NCBI RefSeq assembly: GCF_000007145.1
Contig: NC_003902.1
Location: 3,746,497 to 3,778,496 of the forward strand
Origin: Xanthomonas campestris pv. campestris str. ATCC 33913
GTDB lineage: Bacteria > Pseudomonadota > Gammaproteobacteria > Xanthomonadales > Xanthomonadaceae
Direction of reading: 5' to 3'
DNA: 32,000 bases
Position numbers and translations under genes: made by a program
Part shown: positions 12,940 through 24,135 of the stretch, piece after piece
Layout of the letters: every line of letters begins with the position of its first letter
How positions within the stretch are numbered: position 1 is the first letter of the stretch
The notes under the pieces: generated by a model
Databases searched by the model: none
Told to the model about the DNA's origin: nothing
Seen by the model: the letters and a program-made list of their open reading frames with translations, nothing else

Positions 12940-15900
12940 TTACGCGTGTCCACCCACCGAAGGCGTGCGTGCCTCCAAGGCATCCAGCTCGCGCGCCAGC
13001 GCTTCCGGTGACTTGGTGTACGGGGCAATCAGGCTGTAGAACGCCGGCACCACGTACAGCGACAGCAGCGTGGACAACGACACACCAAAGATCACCACCA
13101 CGCCGATGGTGGCGCGGCTGGCCGAACCGGGCCCGCCGGCCACCACTAACGGAATCGCGCCGACCACCGTGGCGATGGAGGTCATCAGGATCGGGCGCAG
13201 GCGCACCGATGCCGATTCGACGATGGCCGCGTGCACACTGCGGCCTTCGTCGCGCAGCTGATTGGCAAACTCCACGATCAGAATGCCGTTCTTGGCCGCC
13301 AAACCCACCAACATCACGATGCCGATCTGACTGAACAGATTGAGCGTGCCGCCGGTGAGCCACAGGCCGACCAGCGCGCCCAGCACTGCCAGCGGCACCG
13401 TCAGCATGATCACCAGCGGATGGGCGAAGCTCTCGAACTGCGCGGCCAGCACCAGATACACCACCAGCAAGGCCATGCCGAAGGTGAGCAGCACCGCACT
13501 GCCGGATTGCTGGTACTCACGCGATTCGCCCTTCCATTCCACCTGCGCGTACTCGGGCAACTCTTCCTGCGCAGTCTGCTGCGCCCAGGCGATGGCATCG
13601 CCCAGCGGATAGCCCGGCGCCAGGCCGGCACTGATGGTGATTGCGCGCAGCCGATTGAAGCGGTTCAACGTACCGGCTTCAGCCACTTCGCTGAGCGTGA
13701 CCAGGTTGGACAGCGGAATCAGCTCGCCACGGATCGAGCGCACGCGGATGGCGGTGAGGTCTTCGGGCGACATGCGGCCTTCGCGGCCGGCCTGCAGCAT
13801 CACGTCGTATTCTTCGCCGTTGTCGACGAAGGTGGTCACGCGGCGCGAGCCCATCAACGCTTCCAGCGCGCCGCCAATCGCAGTGACCGACACGCCCAGA
13901 TCCGCCGCGCGCAGGCGATCGATATTCACACGCATCTGCGGGCGGGTTTCCTTGTAGTCCGAATCCGCGCCCACCAGGCCGGGATTGGATTCCATGCGCT
14001 GCAGGATGCGGTCGCGCCATTGCGCGATCTCCGCGTAATCCGGGCAGCCCAGCACCATCTGGAACGGTTGGCCGCGGCTGCGTACCAGCCCGCCGCTCAC
14101 CTGGGTGCGCGCACGCACGCCGGTCAGCACGTTGAGTTTCTGCTGCAGCTCGTCGGCAACCTCGGTGGTGGGGCGGTCACGTTTTTCCCAATCCTGCAGG
14201 AACACACTCACGCGGCCGGTGTGCATTTCCTCGCTGCTGCCAAACCCGCCGGGCACGCGCGGATTGGCACGCACGATGGGTTTGTCCGCGCCCACGTACG
14301 GGCGCAGGATGTCTTCCACCTGATGCATCTGGCCAACCGTGTAATCGAAGCCCGCACCTTCCGGGCCGTCGATCATGATCTGGAAGTTGCCGCGGTCCTC
14401 GGCCGGAGCCAGTTCGGACGGAATGCGGCTCATCAACCACGCGCTGGCGCCCAGCGCCAACAGCATCAGTAGCGCGAAGATCCAGGTGCGCTGCACATGC
14501 CGCTCCAGCGATCGCCCGTAGGCGGCCGACACCGCTTGCATGCGCCTGTTGAACCACTGATGGAAACGATTGGGCTTGGCCTGGTCGTGCGCGCGCAATA
14601 GCTTGGACGACATCATCGGCGTGAGCGTCAGCGCCACGAAGGCCGAAATCGCCACCGCTGCCGCCAGTGCCACCGCCAGCTCACGGAACAGCCGCCCGGT
14701 ATTGCCTTCCAGAAAGCCCACCGGCAAAAACACCGCCACCAGCACCGCGGTGGTCGCAATCACCGCGAACGCCACCTGGCCGGTACCGCGCTTGGCGGCC
14801 ACCAGCGGCGGCTCGCCGAGGTCGATGCGGCGCTGGATGTTTTCCACCACCACAATCGCATCGTCGACCACCAGGCCGATACACAGCACCAACGCGAGCA
14901 GGGTGAGCAGGTTGATCGAGAAGTCGAACGCGTATAGCGCAATGAACGCAGCGATCAGACACACCGGCACGGTAACGGCCGGAATCAAGGCCGCGCGTGC
15001 GCTGCCCAAGAACACCCAGATCACCACCAGCACCAGCACCACCGCTTCGATCAGCGTGTGATAGACGCGCTCCACCGCCGCATCGATGAAGGTGGTGGTG
15101 TCGAAGGCAACGAAGATGTTGGTGCCCTGCGGCAGGGTCTTCTGGATTTCTTCGGCCTGCGCGCGTGCTTCGCGTGCTACGTCCAGCGCGTTGGCGGTGG
15201 AGTTGCGCACGATGCCCAGGCCCACGTTGGGTACGCCATTGCTCTGGAAATACGCGCGCCGTTCGGCCGAGGTGAGCTCCACCTTGGCCACGTCGCCCAG
15301 CCGCACCACATAGCCGCCCTCGCCCTTGCTCAGCGGCAGCTTGGCGAAGTCCTCCGGTTTGAGATAGCTGCGCTCCACGCGCAAGGTGAAGTCGCGCTGC
15401 GCCGATTCGATGCTGCCGGCCGGCAACTCCACGTTTTCGTTTTGCAGCGCGGTTTCCACATCGGCCACGGTGAGTGCGCGCGCGGCCAATTGGTCGCGGT
15501 CCAGCCAGATGCGCATCGCGTAGCGCTGCCGCCCGCCGATGCGCACCTGCGCCACGCCGTCCAGGCTGGAGAAGCGGTCAACGACATAGCGTTCGGCGTA
15601 GTCGGACAGCTGCAGCGTGTCCATCGTGCTGGAGCTCATGTTGAGCCACAGAATGGGGTCGGCGTCGGATTCGACCTTGGAAATCTCCGGCGGGCGCGCC
15701 TGATCCGGCATGCGGTCGGACACGCGGCTGACCGCGTCGCGCACGTCGTTGGCAGCCGCTTCCACATCGCGCGTCGGCACGAACTCGATGCTGATGTCCG
15801 ACGAACCATTGCGGCTGCGTGCCTCGATGGTTTCGATCCCCTCGATGCCGGCCAATGCGTCTTCCAGCACCTGGGTGATGCGGCTTTCCACCACTGCCGC

Positions 15901-16065
15901 CGAGGCGCCGGTGTACTCCACGTCCACCGAGACGATGGGCGGGTCGATCGCCGGCAATTCACGCAGCGTGAGCCGGGTGAAGGACATCACGCCCAGCACG
16001 ATCAGCAACAGGCTCATCACCACCGCCATCACCGGGCGGGTAATGGACAGGTCGGAGAGCTTCAT
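12940..16065 (-). CDS. RND (AcrB/AcrD/AcrF, HAE1-type) efflux pump inner-membrane permease.
   Basis: Track ORF of 1041 aa. N-terminus MKLSDLSITRPVMAVVMSLLLIVLG. Twelve-TM, two-large-loop architecture. Blocks VVDDAIVVVENI and AAKNGILIVEFANQLRDEG. Its ATG overlaps the adaptor stop (ATGA at 16062-16065). Confidence 0.92.
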   Translation of the reverse strand: MKLSDLSITRPVMAVVMSLLLIVLGVMSFTRLTLRELPAIDPPIVSVDVEYTGASAAVVESRITQVLEDALAGIEGIETIEARSRNGSSDISIEFVPTRDVEAAANDVRDAVSRVSDRMPDQARPPEISKVESDADPILWLNMSSSTMDTLQLSDYAERYVVDRFSSLDGVAQVRIGGRQRYAMRIWLDRDQLAARALTVADVETALQNENVELPAGSIESAQRDFTLRVERSYLKPEDFAKLPLSKGEGGYVVRLGDVAKVELTSAERRAYFQSNGVPNVGLGIVRNSTANALDVAREARAQAEEIQKTLPQGTNIFVAFDTTTFIDAAVERVYHTLIEAVVLVLVVIWVFLGSARAALIPAVTVPVCLIAAFIALYAFDFSINLLTLLALVLCIGLVVDDAIVVVENIQRRIDLGEPPLVAAKRGTGQVAFAVIATTAVLVAVFLPVGFLEGNTGRLFRELAVALAAAVAISAFVALTLTPMMSSKLLRAHDQAKPNRFHQWFNRRMQAVSAAYGRSLERHVQRTWIFALLMLLALGASAWLMSRIPSELAPAEDRGNFQIMIDGPEGAGFDYTVGQMHQVEDILRPYVGADKPIVRANPRVPGGFGSSEEMHTGRVSVFLQDWEKRDRPTTEVADELQQKLNVLTGVRARTQVSGGLVRSRGQPFQMVLGCPDYAEIAQWRDRILQRMESNPGLVGADSDYKETRPQMRVNIDRLRAADLGVSVTAIGGALEALMGSRRVTTFVDNGEEYDVMLQAGREGRMSPEDLTAIRVRSIRGELIPLSNLVTLSEVAEAGTLNRFNRLRAITISAGLAPGYPLGDAIAWAQQTAQEELPEYAQVEWKGESREYQQSGSAVLLTFGMALLVVYLVLAAQFESFAHPLVIMLTVPLAVLGALVGLWLTGGTLNLFSQIGIVMLVGLAAKNGILIVEFANQLRDEGRSVHAAIVESASVRLRPILMTSIATVVGAIPLVVAGGPGSASRATIGVVVIFGVSLSTLLSLYVVPAFYSLIAPYTKSPEALARELDALEARTPSVGGHA

Positions 16066-17147
16066 TGCACGGCCTGCTTGCCGGCGGTGGCGGTCGCATT
16101 GGCGTTTGCCGGCGCGGCCTGCGCGTCGATCTTCAGGCCCGGGCGCAACTTGCCGGCGCCATCCACCACGATGCGCTCACCGGCTTTGACGCCTTCGAGG
16201 ATTTCCACCTTGCCATCGCGGCGCTCGCCCAGCCGCACGTCGGCGCGCTCCACGCTGCTGTCCGGCTTGACCCGGAACACATACGACTCGCGCCCCACCT
16301 GCACCACCGCAATCTCCGGGATCACCAGCGCCTGCCGCGCCGGCTGGAACAGCCGCACATCCAGCAACATGCCCGGGCGCAGCCGGCGGTCGTCGTTGGG
16401 GAAATCCGCCCGCACGGTGACCGACCGCGTGGTCTCATCGATGCGCGAATCGATCGCCGCCACTTCACCTTCGAACTGCGCGCCCGGGTAGGCGGCGGCA
16501 CTGCCGTTGACCGCGTTGCCAAGCTCGACCAGGCCGAGCTGCGACTCGGGCACCTGGAAATCCACATACATGCGCTCGACATCATCGAGCGTGGTGATCA
16601 CGGTGCTGGCGGTGATCAGCGACCCGGGGCTGACCTGACGGATGCCGAGCACGCCGGAGAACGGCGCGCGCACCTCGCGGTCGGTGATCTCCGCGCGCAT
16701 CTGCTGCACGCGCGCCTCGGCGGCGTCGCGCAGCGCGCGTTGGGTGTCCACGGTGGACTTGGCCACCAGTTGCTGGCCGACCAGGCTCAGCTGGCGCCGA
16801 TACAGCTGCTCGGTTTCCTCGAAGGTGGCCTGGGCGGCGGTCAACGCGGCCTGCTGCGAATTGCCACGCAGGCGCAGCAGCAGCTGCCCGGCCTTGACCT
16901 CGTCGCCACTGTCGAAGTTCACCTGCTCCACCACATCGCTCACCGCGGCGGTCAGCGCCACCGACTCGCGCGCACGCACGGTCGCGATCGACTGCACGGT
17001 CGAATTCCATGGCTGCACGCTCACCGTTTGCACGACGACCGGAATCGGTTTGCTGGCGGCGGGCGCACTGGTCTGGCGGGCGCAACTGGTCAGCCCGACG
17101 GCCAACAAAAGCGCCACGCAAAAACGTGCGCTGGGTCGAACAAGCAT
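16062..17147 (-). CDS. RND efflux periplasmic adaptor (membrane fusion protein), lipoprotein.
   Basis: Track ORF of 361 aa. Lipobox LLLAVGLTSC. Coiled-coil hairpin region (AALTAAQATFEETEQLYRRQ ... RALRDAEARVQQMRAEI) and the beta-barrel block VRAPFSGVLG. Translationally coupled to the pump gene. Confidence 0.9.
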   Translation of the reverse strand: MLVRPSARFCVALLLAVGLTSCARQTSAPAASKPIPVVVQTVSVQPWNSTVQSIATVRARESVALTAAVSDVVEQVNFDSGDEVKAGQLLLRLRGNSQQAALTAAQATFEETEQLYRRQLSLVGQQLVAKSTVDTQRALRDAAEARVQQMRAEITDREVRAPFSGVLGIRQVSPGSLITASTVITTLDDVERMYVDFQVPESQLGLVELGNAVNGSAAAYPGAQFEGEVAAIDSRIDETTRSVTVRADFPNDDRRLRPGMLLDVRLFQPARQALVIPEIAVVQVGRESYVFRVKPDSSVERADVRLGERRDGKVEILEGVKAGERIVVDGAGKLRPGLKIDAQAAPANANATATAGKQAVQ

Positions 17148-17409: not shown

Positions 17410-19386
17410 TCAGCGCTCCAGGCCCAGGTATTCCAGGACATGCCGCGCCAGCGCCTCTACGTTCTCACCATCGGCGTGAAGATGGATTTCCGGGCGCTCG
17501 GGCGCCTCGTACGGCGAATCGATCCCGGTGAAATTGGGAATCTGCCCGGCGCGGGCCTTGCGGTAGAGGCCTTTCACGTCGCGTGCCTCGGCGACCGCCA
17601 GAGGCACGTCCACAAACACTTCGACGAATTCACCCGAGTCAAAACGCTCGCGTGCCAGCTGGCGTTCGGCACGGAACGGGGAAATGAAGCTCACCAGCAC
17701 GATCAGCCCGGCATCGGCCATCAGCCGTGCGACCTCGGCCACGCGGCGGATGTTCTCCACGCGGTCCTCGTCGGTGAAGCCCAGATCGCGGTTGAGCCCG
17801 TGGCGCACGTTGTCGCCGTCCAGGATGAAGGTGTGATAGCCCAGCGCATGCAGGCGCTTGTCCACCAGGTTGGCCACCGTGGACTTGCCCGCACCGGACA
17901 GGCCTGTGAACCACAGCACACGTGGCGCCTGGCCCTTGATGCGCGCACGCGCGGCGCGGTCCACATCCAGGTGCTGCCAATGCACATTGCCGGCGCGGCG
18001 CAACGCGAACTCCAGCGCACCGGCCGCGACCGTGGCATTGGTCTGCCGGTCGATCAGGATGAAGCCGCCCAACACCCGGTTGCGCGCATACGGGGCAAAC
18101 GCGATCGGCTCGTCCAGCGACAGGTTGCAGTAGCCCACCTCGTTGAGCTCCAGCCGCTTGGCGGCCAGCCGCTCCTGCGTGTTCACATCGACCTTGTGCT
18201 TGATCTCGCTGATGCTGGCGGCGACGGTGCGGGTGCCGATCTTGAGCCAGTACGGGCGGCCCGGCAGCAACGCGGCATCGTCCATCCACAGCACGTGCGC
18301 GGCGAACTGGTCGGCCACTTCCGGCGGGTCGTCCACGGCGGCGATGATGTCGCCGCGGCTGATGTCGATCTCTTCGCGCAAGGTCAGCGTCACGGCCTGC
18401 CCGGCGCGTGCGCTGTCGACCACGCCATTGGCATCCAGCACGCTCGCCACATGCGCGCGGCGCCCGGACGGCACCACCACCACCACATCGCCGCTGCGTA
18501 CCTGGCCGGCAGCAATGGTGCCGGCATAGCCACGGAACTGCGCGTTGGGCCGATTGACCCACTGCACCGGCAGGCGCAATCCACTCACTGCGTCGGGCGT
18601 CTCCAGCTGCACGCTGTCCAGGTGCTGCAGCAGATGCGGCCCCTGGTACCACGGCATGCGCGTGGACGCGCTGGACAGGTTGTCGCCGGCCAGTGCAGAC
18701 AGCGGAATGCACTGCACATCGGCAATGCCCAACTGCGCCGCCAGGGCGCGGTAGCTGTCGACGATGGTGGCGAACACCTGCGCGTCGTAGTCCACCAGGT
18801 CCATCTTGTTGACCGCCAGCACCACGTGGCGAATGCCCAGCAACGAGACGATGTAGCTGTGCCGCCGCGTCTGCACCAGCACGCCCTTGCGCGCATCCAC
18901 CAGCACCACCGCCACATCGGCGGTGGAGGCGCCGGTGGCCATATTGCGCGTGTACTGCTCATGCCCGGGGCAATCGGCAACGATGAACTTGCGTTGGTCG
19001 GTATCGAAGTAGCGGTACGCCACATCGATGGTGATGCCCTGCTCACGCTCGGCGGCCAGCCCATCCACCAGCAAGGCGTAATCGATGCCTTCGCCCTGCG
19101 TGCCATGGCGCTTGCTGTCGCTTTCCAGCGCGGCCAGCTGGTCATCGAACAGCCGCTTGCTGTCGTACAACAACCGCCCGATAAGCGTGCTCTTGCCATC
19201 GTCCACGCTGCCGCAGGTGATGAAGCGCAGCAACGGTTTGGATTCGTGCTGCTGGAGGTAGGTGCTGATGGCGCTGGGATTGGGGAGTGGGGAATCGGGA
19301 ATCGCAAAAGCGGTCTCCTCCCTCATCTCGTTCCCGGCGAACTGCTGTTGCGATTCCCCATTCCCGATTCCCGATTCACTGCCCAT
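17410..19386 (-). CDS. cysNC: Bifunctional sulfate adenylyltransferase subunit 1 / adenylylsulfate (APS) kinase, CysN-CysC fusion.
   Basis: Track ORF of 658 aa. GTPase block [22 protein letters not shown], then [12 protein letters not shown] and NKMD. C-terminal APS-kinase P-loop [14 protein letters not shown] and [16 protein letters not shown] 19386 overlaps the cysD stop (ATGA). The first ~37 codons are encoded by a repeat element, so the start is uncertain; an alternative in-frame ATG is at 19326. Confidence 0.92.
19276..19377 (-). repeat. Palindromic heptamer-built element, copy A (REP/MITE-like), at the cysD|cysN junction.
   Basis: On the plus strand, G-rich arm GGGATTGGGGAGTGGGGAATCGGGAATCG (19276-19304), a 46-nt centre, and C-rich arm CGATTCCCCATTCCCGATTCCCGATTC (19351-19377). 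The arms pair over ~27 nt with mismatches recurring about every 7 nt. Pairing can extend ~9 bp into the centre (CAAAAGCGG / CTGCTGTTG). Confidence 0.85.
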
Positions 19387-20294
19387 CAGAAATACCCCTC
19401 GAGTTTCTTCTGCTCCATCGATGCGCCTGGTGCGTGGTCGATCATGCGGCCCTGGCGTTCGGAGCTGGTGCTGACCAGCATCTCGGCGATCACCGCTTCC
19501 AGCGTGTCGGCGGTGGATTCAATCGCGCCGGTCAGCGGGTAGCAGCCCAGCGTGCGAAAGCGCACCGAGCGCAGTTGCGGGGTTTCGCCGGGGTGCAGCG
19601 GCAAGCGGTCGTCGTCGACCATGATCCAGGCGCCGTCGCGCTGCACCACCGGGCGCGGCGCGGCGAAGTACAACGGCACCACCGGAATGCGTTCGCGGTA
19701 GATGTACAGCCAGATATCCAGCTCGGTCCAGTTGGACAGCGGAAACACGCGCACGCTTTCGCCAGGCTTGGTGCGCGCGTTGTAGAGATTCCACAGCTCC
19801 GGGCGCTGATTCTTCGGGTCCCAGCGATGGCGTGCATTGCGGAACGAGAACACGCGCTCCTTGGCGCGCGATTTCTCTTCGTCCCGGCGCGCCCCGCCGA
19901 TCGCCGCATCGAAGCCGCCCTGCTCCAGCGCCTGCTTCAGGCCCTGGGTCTTCATCACGTCGGTGTGCACCGCCGCGCCATGGCTGATCGGGCCGATGTC
20001 CTGCGCGACGCCTTCCGGGTTGATGTGCACGCGCAGGTCCACCGCGGTCTCGGCCGCGCGACGGTCGCGGAAGGCGATCATCTCGCGGAATTTCCAGCGC
20101 GTATCCACGTGCAGCAGCGGGATCGGCGGTGGCGAGGGGGCAAAGGCCTTGAGCAGCAGGTGCAGCAGCACCGAGCTGTCCTTGCCGACCGAATACAGCA
20201 TCACCGGCGCACGGAACTCGGCGGCGACCTCGCGCAGGATGTGGATGCTCTCGGCCTCGAGACGGTCGAGATGGGAAAGGGGTGGCAGGGTCAT
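19386..20294 (-). CDS. cysD: Sulfate adenylyltransferase subunit 2.
   Basis: Track ORF 19386..20525 trimmed to ATG 20294, giving 302 aa. It begins [27 protein letters not shown] and contains the PP-loop [13 protein letters not shown], plus [29 protein letters not shown] and the C-terminal LEGYF. This is colinear with enterobacterial CysD as I remember it. Confidence 0.93.
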
Positions 20295-22320: not shown

Positions 22321-22324
22321 TGCC

Positions 22325-22428
22325 GGGAATCGGGAGTGGGGAATCGGGAATGGGTACGGCCTGCACCCGAATTGTCGCGAGCGACCACGCCGCTTTTCAC
22401 GATTCCCCTTTCCCGATTCCCGATTCCC
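22325..22428 (+). repeat. Palindromic heptamer-built element, copy B, filling the cysJ|cysI spacer.
   Basis: G-rich arm GGGAATCGGGAGTGGGGAATCGGGAATGGG (22325-22354), a 45-nt centre, and C-rich arm CGATTCCCCTTTCCCGATTCCCGATTCCC (22400-22428). It shares an identical 20-mer, GGGAGTGGGGAATCGGGAAT, with copy A. The two C-rich arms are 26/27 identical. Confidence 0.85.
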
Positions 22429-24135
22429 ATGACCCACTCCGTCGAAGACATCAAATCCACCAGCCGCCGCTTGCGCGGGTCGCTGGAGCAGAGCCTGGCC
22501 GATCCGGTCACCGGGGCGTTGCGCGAGGACGATCAGACGCTGATCAAATACCACGGCAGCTACCAGCAGGACGACCGCGACATCCGCGATGAGCGGCGGC
22601 GGCAAAAGCTCGAGCCGGCATATCAGTTCATGATCCGCACGCGCACGCCAGGTGGAGTGATTTCGCCCAGCCAGTGGCTGGCACTGGATGGCATCGCCAC
22701 GCGCTATGCCAACCATTCGCTGCGCATCACCACGCGCCAGGCGTTCCAGTTCCATGGTGTGATCAAGCGCGAGCTCAAGGCCACGATGCAGGCGATCAAC
22801 GCCACCTTGATCGACACGCTGGCCGCCTGCGGCGATGTGAATCGCAATGTGCAGGTGGCGGCCAACCCGCTGCGGTCGCAGGCGCATGCCACGCTGTATG
22901 CCGATGCCGCGCGCGTGTCCGAGCATCTGCTGCCCAACACGCGTGCCTATTACGAGATCTGGCTGGATGAAGAGCGCGTGTCCGGTTCGGGCGCCGAGGA
23001 CGAACCGATCTATGGCGACCGCTACCTGCCGCGCAAATTCAAGATCGGCTTTGCCGCGCCACCCCATAACGATGTGGACGTGTTCGCCAACGACCTGGGC
23101 TTCATCGCCATCCTGCGCGAGGGCCAGTTGCTCGGCTACAACGTCAGCATCGGCGGCGGCATGGGCGCCAGCCACGGCGATGCGGAGACCTGGCCGCGCG
23201 TGGCCAACGTGATCGGCTTCGTCACCGGCGATCAGTTGCTGGATATCGCCACGGCCGTGGTCACCACCCAGCGCGACCTCGGCAATCGCGCCGTGCGTAA
23301 GCGCGCGCGCTTCAAGTACACCATCGACGACCACGGCCTGGACACCATCGTGGCGGAGATCGAACGCCGCGCGGGATTCAGCTTGCAACCTGCGCAGCCG
23401 TTTGCATTCGCGCATAACGGCGACCGCTACGGCTGGGTGGAGGGCGAACAGGGCGATTGGCATCTGACGCTGTCGCTGCCGGCCGGGCGCATTGCCGACA
23501 CCGACACCGCCGCGCACCTGAGCGGGCTGCGCGCCATCGCGCAGTTGCAGATGGGCGAGTTCCGCATGACGCCCAATCAGAACCTGGTGATTGCCGGCGT
23601 CCCGGCCGAACAGCGCGCGCAGATCGACCAACTGGTGGCGCAGTACGGCCTGGATGCCGGCAACCTGGCGCCCACCGCGTTGGCGCGCGGCGCGATGGCC
23701 TGTGTGGCCTTGCCAACCTGCGGGCTGGCCATGGCCGAGGCCGAGCGCTATCTGCCGGATTTCAGTGCAGCGCTGCAGCCGCTGCTGGAGCGTCACGGGC
23801 TGGCGCAGACGCCGATCGTGCTGCGCCTGTCCGGTTGCCCGAACGGCTGTTCGCGGCCGTATCTGGCTGAAATCGCATTGGTCGGCAAGGCACCGGGCCG
23901 CTACAACCTCATGCTGGGTGGCGACCGCCGCGGCCAACGCCTGAACACGCTGTACCGCGAAAACATCAACGAGGCCGACATCCTCGCCGCGCTCGAGCCA
24001 CTGCTGGCCCGTTACGCAGCAGAGCGCGACCGACACACCGATGAAGGCTTCGGCGACTTCCTGCATCGCAGCGGCCTGATCGCCCTGCCGCCCTACCCCA
24101 CCCACCGTCATCTCGACCTGGAATTGCTCGCATGA
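22429..24135 (+). CDS. cysI: Sulfite reductase [NADPH] hemoprotein beta component.
   Basis: Track ORF 22336..24135 starts at a GTG inside the repeat. I prefer ATG 22429, giving [23 protein letters not shown]. Blocks: [38 protein letters not shown], and the siroheme/4Fe-4S cysteines [16 protein letters not shown] and [12 protein letters not shown]. No SD is visible before 22429, so the start is uncertain. Confidence 0.92.

Follow-up and report, generated by a model that had tools for sequence, protein, structure and literature searches.

The window analysed here is a 32,000-nt stretch of the chromosome of Xanthomonas campestris pv. campestris str. ATCC 33913 (NC_003902.1), in which cysD and the cysN/cysC fusion gene follow each other on the minus strand. 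The features at their junction are listed below.

17410-19386, minus strand: cysN/cysC fusion gene (cysNC; alias nodQ, raxQ), 658 aa in the ORF listing, with the putative element-encoded N-terminal extension included.
19386-20294, minus strand: cysD, 302 aa, whose translation begins MTLPPLSHL and ends KKLEGYF followed by the stop.
19384-19388, minus strand: TGATG stop/start overlap (translational coupling site), with the cysD TGA at 19388-19386 and the shared base at 19386.
19395-19400, minus strand: Shine-Dalgarno (SD) sequence GAGGGG of cysN, within the last cysD codons and 8 nt upstream of the ATG.
19234-19269, minus strand: first conserved CysN segment, which directly precedes the LLRF block and has no start codon inside; from here on, the protein is homologous to outgroups and to 1ZUN_B.

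The product of cysNC is 90-97% identical to Xanthomonas CysN clusters bearing GTP_EFTU and APS_kinase Pfam domains. Its homology to outgroups and to the solved CysN structure 1ZUN_B (Pseudomonas syringae) begins at residue 38-43, with the match to 1ZUN_B itself beginning at residue 40, and the conserved segment following the element is present in all outgroups and aligns with 1ZUN_B residues 12 onward. The end of cysD reads ...AAA CTC GAG GGG TAT TTC TGA, and cysN begins at the A of this TGA. While the initial annotation had described the overlap as a 4-nt ATGA, the junction reads TGATG, with 1 nt shared at 19386. The same TGATG overlap was found in 74 loci across Proteobacteria, the GGAGGGGTATTTCTGATG context around the cysN SD is kept in loci with and without the element, and the coupled ATG with its SD is kept in every lineage, element present or absent. 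The cysD gene calls at the matching position in the related loci L081-L091 are 302-303 aa long.

Within about codons 2-38 of cysN(C) lies a heptamer-repeat palindrome of 110 nt, denoted as copy A, whose arms of 42 nt each are 79% complementary and are separated by 26 nt (inverted repeat I1). A second copy of the same repeat family, copy B, lies elsewhere in the window.

19341-19382, minus strand: 5' arm in the mRNA, G-rich (GTGAATC GGGAATC GGGAATG GGGAATC), cysN codons 2-15, part of inverted repeat I1 and identical to Rehm repeat #139.
19315-19340, minus strand: variable centre (loop), holding the non-conserved internal ATG at 19326-19324.
19273-19314, minus strand: 3' arm in the mRNA, C-rich (GATTCCC GATTCCC CACTCCC CAATCCC), codons 25-38, part of inverted repeat I1; its complement GGGATTGGGGAGTGGGGAATCGGGAATC is Rehm repeat #138.
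19265-19274, minus strand: outer-helix strand GCGCCATCAG, pairing with CTGATGGGC (19389-19381), start codon included; helix 1 of the six-species Xanthomonas consensus fold, 96% of cells paired.
22324-22428, plus strand: copy B, filling the cysJ-cysI spacer (inverted repeats I13 and I18; Rehm repeats #140 and #141).

Each arm of copy A consists of four tandem GGGAATC-type heptamers, the 3' arm reading GGGATTG GGGAGTG GGGAATC GGGAATC on the opposite strand. The G-rich arm begins 4-6 nt past the cysD stop on the coding strand, and the mRNA-sense arm has four G-tracts. In six Xanthomonas species, CUGAUGGGC and GCGCCAUCAG pair to form the outer helix. The palindrome within the cysN frame, as the initial annotation had placed it, was confirmed by the inverted-repeat search, by the motif excess (0.35 matches of GGGAATCGGGAAT with up to 2 mismatches expected in the window and 13 observed, a single one of them outside copies A and B) and by the RNA fold (-65.6 kcal/mol, z = -4.1). 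An Rfam scan of the whole window returned no family at the gathering threshold. The cysN frame from ATG 19386 does run through the palindrome without a stop, its translation matching the one quoted earlier exactly, and the count of residues upstream of the LLRF block is 51, where 53 had been stated.

Rehm et al. 2015 (PMC4692102) described GGGAATC (GGGNATC) heptamer repeats of Xanthomonas, which form quadruplexes in vitro. In X. campestris ATCC 33913 they counted 186 GGGAATC-type arrays, mostly of four units, with 70 cases of convergent inverted array pairs; the arrays lie mostly between co-directional genes, and downstream copies are located 0-50 nt past the stop codon of the upstream gene (PMC4692102). 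Both arms of copy A hold at least 14 nt of tandem GGGANTN heptamers with at least one GGGAATC, and the invariant columns of the arms follow GGGA.T. in six species. The two arrays converge on opposite strands 26 nt apart, and copy A is located within 0-50 nt past the cysD stop in a co-directional gene pair. Judged by all of these sequence-level properties, copy A belongs to the GGGAATC heptamer repeats sensu Rehm et al., as a paired inverted member. The S2 table of that study lists #138 and #139 as partners, 'intragenic: nodQ (XCC3171)', 6 nt from cysD, and places repeats #140 and #141 between cysJ and cysI (PMC4692102). Coding-region repeats were treated there as rare exceptions and left out of the transcript analysis, and the translation, start codon and frame of the nodQ repeat were not addressed (PMC4692102). 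The repeat family and the nodQ locus are thus already catalogued, which the initial annotation had not known.

Among the best 120 Xanthomonas CysN clusters, 91 are 658 aa long. All 91 start with MG or MS and have exactly 51 residues before LLRF, and no indel occurs in these N-termini despite the highly variable sequence between the start and LLRF, an argument from frame that is partly survivorship because out-of-frame alleles would be pseudogenes and missing from protein databases. Since the arms of copy A cannot hold stop codons in any frame, the open frame alone is weak evidence for translation. Met21, corresponding to the internal ATG 19326, was found in 7 of the 92 full-length Xanthomonas sequences, and any internal Met within residues 2-51 in 17 of the 92. 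The DNA of X. oryzae and X. arboricola has no in-frame ATG, GTG or TTG from codon 2 to LLRF. The Xanthomonas DNA comprised five exact-protein look-ups, to which a tblastn genome scan added only 'X. chitinilytica' (84% identical), and the early-branching Xanthomonas (translucens, albilineans, sacchari) lie outside this sample. Twenty-six of the 120 public gene models (637, 638, 650 or 652 aa) begin inside the element, 12 of them at a codon that reads Ile in relatives, and from this comparison the shorter models are probably the misannotated ones. The text of the X. euvesicatoria proteogenomics supplements lists cysN (1977 nt) with no peptides for it, nothing on the protein N-terminus was found in papers on raxQ, and a look for N-terminal peptide, intact-mass or ribosome-profiling records of CysN gave none.

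Considering that the first conserved CysN segment is common to all outgroups, translation must begin upstream of it. As no other start is conserved, the coupled ATG and its SD are ancestral and the conserved helix lies just past the element, ribosomes would have to initiate at the coupled ATG and translate across the palindrome. We infer from the absence of any other start codon that the repeat-encoded peptide is present in the protein.

Outgroup loci were collected from two tblastn-based scans that are independent of gene calling. The initial annotation had given 20-25 residues as the norm before the LLRF block, which is roughly right: in the 74 TGATG-coupled loci the mode is 23 and the median 26, and 88% have 33 residues or fewer. 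Outgroups without the element have 16-33 residues before LLRF with a TGATG-coupled start and SD, and loci L044 and L132 each have an ATG with 23 residues before LLRF. In the nearest element-free relatives (Stenotrophomonas, some Pseudoxanthomonas, Lysobacter), the number is 18-23. Comparing N-termini of relatives without the element had been proposed as a check, and since they are not equally long, the reading in which the element is translated was not refuted. The proposal that CysN carries an element-encoded N-terminal peptide in the manner of the Rickettsia palindromes is strongly supported by the comparison, with 91 clusters in frame at 51 residues and shorter relatives where the element is missing.

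Long N-termini at this junction are not confined to Xanthomonas. In many other Lysobacterales lineages CysN has 49-65 residues before the conserved block, and a hairpin of -67 to -101 kcal/mol lies at the same place. At least 10 structurally different palindromes occupy the cysD-cysN junction, built from GGGATTC, GGGAACG, GGGGACC or GTGATTC units, and all of the variants are in frame and stop-free.

X. oryzae (L081), X. hortorum (L085) and partly X. arboricola (L083): GGGATTC/GGGAGTC paired with GAATCCC.
Metagenomic Stenotrophomonas-like contig (L086): GGGAACG.
Pseudoxanthomonas wuyuanensis (L087): GGGGACC.
P. suwonensis (L089) and '[Pseudomonas] boreopolis' (L090): GTGATTC.
Other contigs (L088, L091, L092, L095): further heptamer variants.

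Largely decayed palindromes with the length of the extension kept were found in X. chitinilytica (L001, 51 aa) and in a Pseudoxanthomonas MAG (L003, 52 aa). The filled or relic loci L001, L003, L092, L093 and L095 came from the gene-caller-independent tblastn scans, and all of them are in frame. In a neighbour-joining tree built on the CysN core, alleles with and without the element are intermingled among close relatives. L091 and L172, the only close filled/empty pair, have nearly identical flanks, between which 123 nt stand in place of 24 nt, and no direct repeat indicating a target-site duplication was seen at the borders of this pair; by its sequence, the difference looks more like allele exchange than simple transposition. 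The less expected point is that, at the sequence level, one gene junction holds in-frame heptamer palindromes of differing sequence in several genera. Heptamer palindromes are also present in the cysJ-cysI spacer of many of these genomes, and P. wuyuanensis has the same GGGGACC unit in three positions within 14 kb.

Constraint on the element was compared in six Xanthomonas species. The fractions of variable columns at codon positions 1/2/3 are 0.43/0.46/0.65 in the element and 0.12/0.06/0.50 in the rest of the gene, and amino-acid identity is 60% in the element against 95% elsewhere in CysN; these figures suggest that the encoded peptide is almost unconstrained. GC3 is 0.59-0.70 in the element against 0.80-0.87 elsewhere in the gene. 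When the centre was taken as CDS nt 41-82 (19346-19305 in the window), variable columns made up 74% of the centre and 38% of the arms (p = 0.0004). The consensus stem across the six species is 92% paired with 4 pairs changed on both sides, and in shuffle controls the observed pairing was reached by 1 of 500 and the covariation score by 13 of 500; coming from six sequences only, this stem conservation and covariation is suggestive. The relic loci indicate that the arms decay where the maintaining force is absent. The AlphaFold2 model from an alignment of 48 sequences is poor (mean pLDDT 55.8); in it, CysNC residues 1-36 appear as coil with pLDDT about 24.

Taken together, copy A very probably lies inside the true coding sequence of cysN(C) and is read in frame from the coupled ATG, as far as comparison of sequences can tell. 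The TGATG-coupled start with the SD inside the end of cysD is the ancestral cysN start, from which ribosomes would decode the palindrome and add a net N-terminal extension of about 30 residues to CysN. The usual landing or retention site of the family appears to be 0-50 nt past an upstream stop codon, and because cysD and cysN overlap, this position past the cysD stop is the beginning of cysN. Only stop-free variants of a length divisible by three would survive there. Slippage by one 7-nt unit would shift the frame; this would account for a length that stays frozen at 51 residues throughout Xanthomonas, in contrast to the intergenic copies, which range from 2 to 26 units. The extension itself would be a tolerated and probably disordered passenger, since the N-terminal tail of CysN, ahead of the first conserved helix, is of variable length in Proteobacteria and so tolerates extra residues. 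Its arms, we infer, are kept at the nucleic-acid level by some force, be it selection acting on the hairpin or conversion with other copies. Initiation would normally be hindered by so stable a hairpin only a few nt past the start codon, and this counts against a translated element.

The same evidence was weighed against other explanations. That the annotated start is wrong and that translation begins at ATG 19326 or a nearby non-canonical codon, so that only the 3' arm is translated, is what the initial annotation had offered as its alternative. An in-frame ATG does stand at codon 21 in the window and the 26 short public models begin inside the element, but the rarity of Met21 and of any internal Met, the lack of an alternative start in X. 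oryzae and X. arboricola, the Ile codon at which twelve of the short models open and the universal coupled ATG with SD make this quite improbable. It is also unlikely that the encoded peptide is functional, say as a flexible tail with a part in the interaction, localisation or turnover of CysNC/RaxQ. Its invariant length in Xanthomonas and the extensions that outlast palindrome decay would fit a function, whereas the low identity, the almost absent codon-phase pattern and the modelled coil (in a poor model overall) speak against it; moreover, the peptides that other lineages encode with other heptamers are unrelated to it, and close relatives have no extension. Bypass of the palindrome by the ribosome (hopping, as in T4 gene 60), or processing of the RNA, could be imagined given a very stable hairpin near the start. 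However, the need for an in-frame, stop-free element would then vanish, yet every variant is both, and no stop codon stands at a take-off site; with the frame always kept, we ruled translational bypass out.

An RNA-level role deserves more weight, although we regard it as doubtful that the hairpin is a selected regulatory device that sets the CysD:CysN ratio with the peptide as its by-product. Such a device could act by making cysN initiation strictly dependent on ribosomes that finish cysD, or by shielding the cysD mRNA at its 3' end. The arms are more conserved than the centre with some compensatory changes, the outer helix including the cysN start codon is formed in six species, and the palindrome is kept genus-wide and recurs at the junction in other genera. 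An assembled X. citri transcript ends within the nodQ repeat, and such repeats coincide with transcript starts or stops more often than controls do (PMC4692102), while transcript ends at hairpins may be reverse-transcription artefacts. Against such a device, very close relatives differ in whether their allele is filled or empty, and the relics decay. The energy needed to open the SD-AUG region, computed over -14 to +6 in 14 junctions with a filled or relic element and in 13 that are empty, is 4-20 kcal/mol with the element, no higher than the 3-14 kcal/mol without it; as the ranges overlap, burial of the ribosome-binding site as a general effect of the element was rejected. An intrinsic terminator at copy A was rejected as well, as no terminator-like site was found and the 3' arm is followed by CAGCACCUACCUC with no U-tract. 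A role of the hairpin in protecting the cysD mRNA 3' end or in limiting CysN output is possible. More speculatively, selection might favour a structured RNA or DNA element at the Lysobacterales cysD-cysN junction, where a long hairpin past the cysD stop is kept over genus-level divergence while its arms co-evolve with the heptamer family of the genome. It might then tune the coupled synthesis of both ATP sulfurylase subunits, or how stable the cysD mRNA is, the enzyme frame being repeatedly bent to fit with different heptamers in each lineage.

If copy A is translated as we propose, it can be compared with known systems. Rickettsia palindromic elements (RPE; Ogata et al. 2000) are reportedly in-frame repeats in protein-coding genes. 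Copy A resembles them as a dispersed palindrome of ~100 nt that sits in frame in a conserved gene and seems tolerated as an extra peptide; it is an in-frame, stop-free repeat in a conserved ORF, and orthologues without the repeat exist. By this analogy, the in-frame palindromic repeat in cysN matches the behaviour of RPEs. It differs from them in that there is no sequence relationship and its arms are tandem 7-nt units, in that it stands at the extreme N-terminus, where two genes overlap, whereas RPEs stand in internal surface loops, and in that the repeat type filling the cysD-cysN site differs from lineage to lineage. REP/BIME elements, which have RAYT transposases, are likewise abundant, short, transcribed and hairpin-forming palindromes between co-directional genes near the upstream 3' end, but REPs are single imperfect palindromes of ~20-40 nt and copy A is made of heptamer arrays. 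Copy A is like MITEs in its size, in its long stem-loop and in having relatives whose sites may be filled or empty; however, it is not a MITE because it has no target-site duplication, and the change of 24 nt to 123 nt between L091 and L172 is a replacement and not a simple insertion. Other repeats fused in frame to ORFs, which copy A also matches in behaviour, include BRE, RUP/BOX and MITE ORF fusions (reviewed in Delihas 2011, PMC3184786). Selfish-looking DNA inside a gene is interesting but not unprecedented, and the novelty is modest, the locus having already appeared in a supplement.

Among gamma-proteobacteria, the heptamer repeats had been reported in Xanthomonas only (PMC4692102). Heptamer palindromes occur outside this genus too, in Stenotrophomonas, Pseudoxanthomonas and other Lysobacterales, and a 7-nt repeat family can apparently live in an ORF if its total length is divisible by three, the frame then freezing the copy number. 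Close relatives in Stenotrophomonas, some with a filled and some with an empty allele, provide a natural test of whether the hairpin has any effect. For annotation, the inconsistency among public Xanthomonas CysN starts would be settled, with the 26 of 120 models that begin inside the element probably wrong. CysNC is RaxQ, the PAPS supplier for sulfation of the RaxX peptide that is recognised by the rice XA21 receptor, and for expression or modelling of RaxQ, residues 2-38 would be regarded as repeat-derived and probably dispensable.

When a filled cysN allele, which carries the heptamer palindrome (locus L091, 6001-6165; 54 residues before the conserved LLRF), was compared with an empty one (locus L172, 1031-1095; 21 residues), the flanks were almost identical, and the filled allele had 123 nt in place of 24 nt. 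In the tree, the element allele of L091 (MKPGTGNGEQG...) was found on differing CysN core backgrounds. Considering that a single element allele occurs on several backgrounds, these sequences suggest that it has spread through homologous recombination.

The palindrome of the window (copy A) lies in the first codons of cysN, directly after its junction with cysD. The initial annotation had described this junction as an ATGA overlap; instead, the sequence reads TGATG, with an overlap of 1 nt (19386-19388). Both TGATG and a GGAGG lying about 8-9 nt upstream are kept at this junction in 74 loci of alpha-, beta- and gamma-proteobacteria. Within 19234-19400 of the window, the SD region GAGGGGTA at the cysD end is complementary to the conserved cysN codons TAC CTC C (Tyr-Leu-Gln), and the two are paired in a fold predicted from the window sequence alone. 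The annotated start of Xanthomonas cysN varies among public records, giving proteins of 658, 652, 650, 638 or 637 aa (P0003, P0055, P0059, P0065 and others), and in 12 public CysN models the codon taken as the start encodes Ile in sister sequences.

A repeat of the same family and a gene pair downstream of cysNC were located as follows.
22324-22435, plus strand: copy B, occupying the entire cysJ-cysI spacer.
12940-17147: RND efflux pair, made up of an ACR_tran pump (1041 aa) and a membrane-fusion protein (361 aa).
The gene order cysH-cysI-cysJ / cysD-cysNC / RND is kept from Xanthomonas to Pseudoxanthomonas and Stenotrophomonas.

The C-rich arm of copy B reaches and overruns the cysI ATG (22429). 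This start adjoins a hairpin of about -50 kcal/mol, and no purine-rich SD was found upstream of the ATG in the window sequence. For X. oryzae and X. vesicatoria, the cysI start chosen by gene callers lies 5 codons earlier, within the arm (573 vs 568 aa).

Comparing the copies at the cysN 5' end and in the cysJ-cysI spacer, we found that the heptamer type tends to agree inside one genome (L081-L087, Xanthomonas and related loci). In the window and in X. citri, and mostly in X. arboricola, both sites are of the AATC-type. X. oryzae and X. hortorum have the ATT/AGT-type at both, and Pseudoxanthomonas wuyuanensis has GGGGACC at three sites; the two sites differ in X. vesicatoria and in a metagenomic Stenotrophomonas-like contig. 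This agreement within genomes hints at concerted evolution of the heptamer family.
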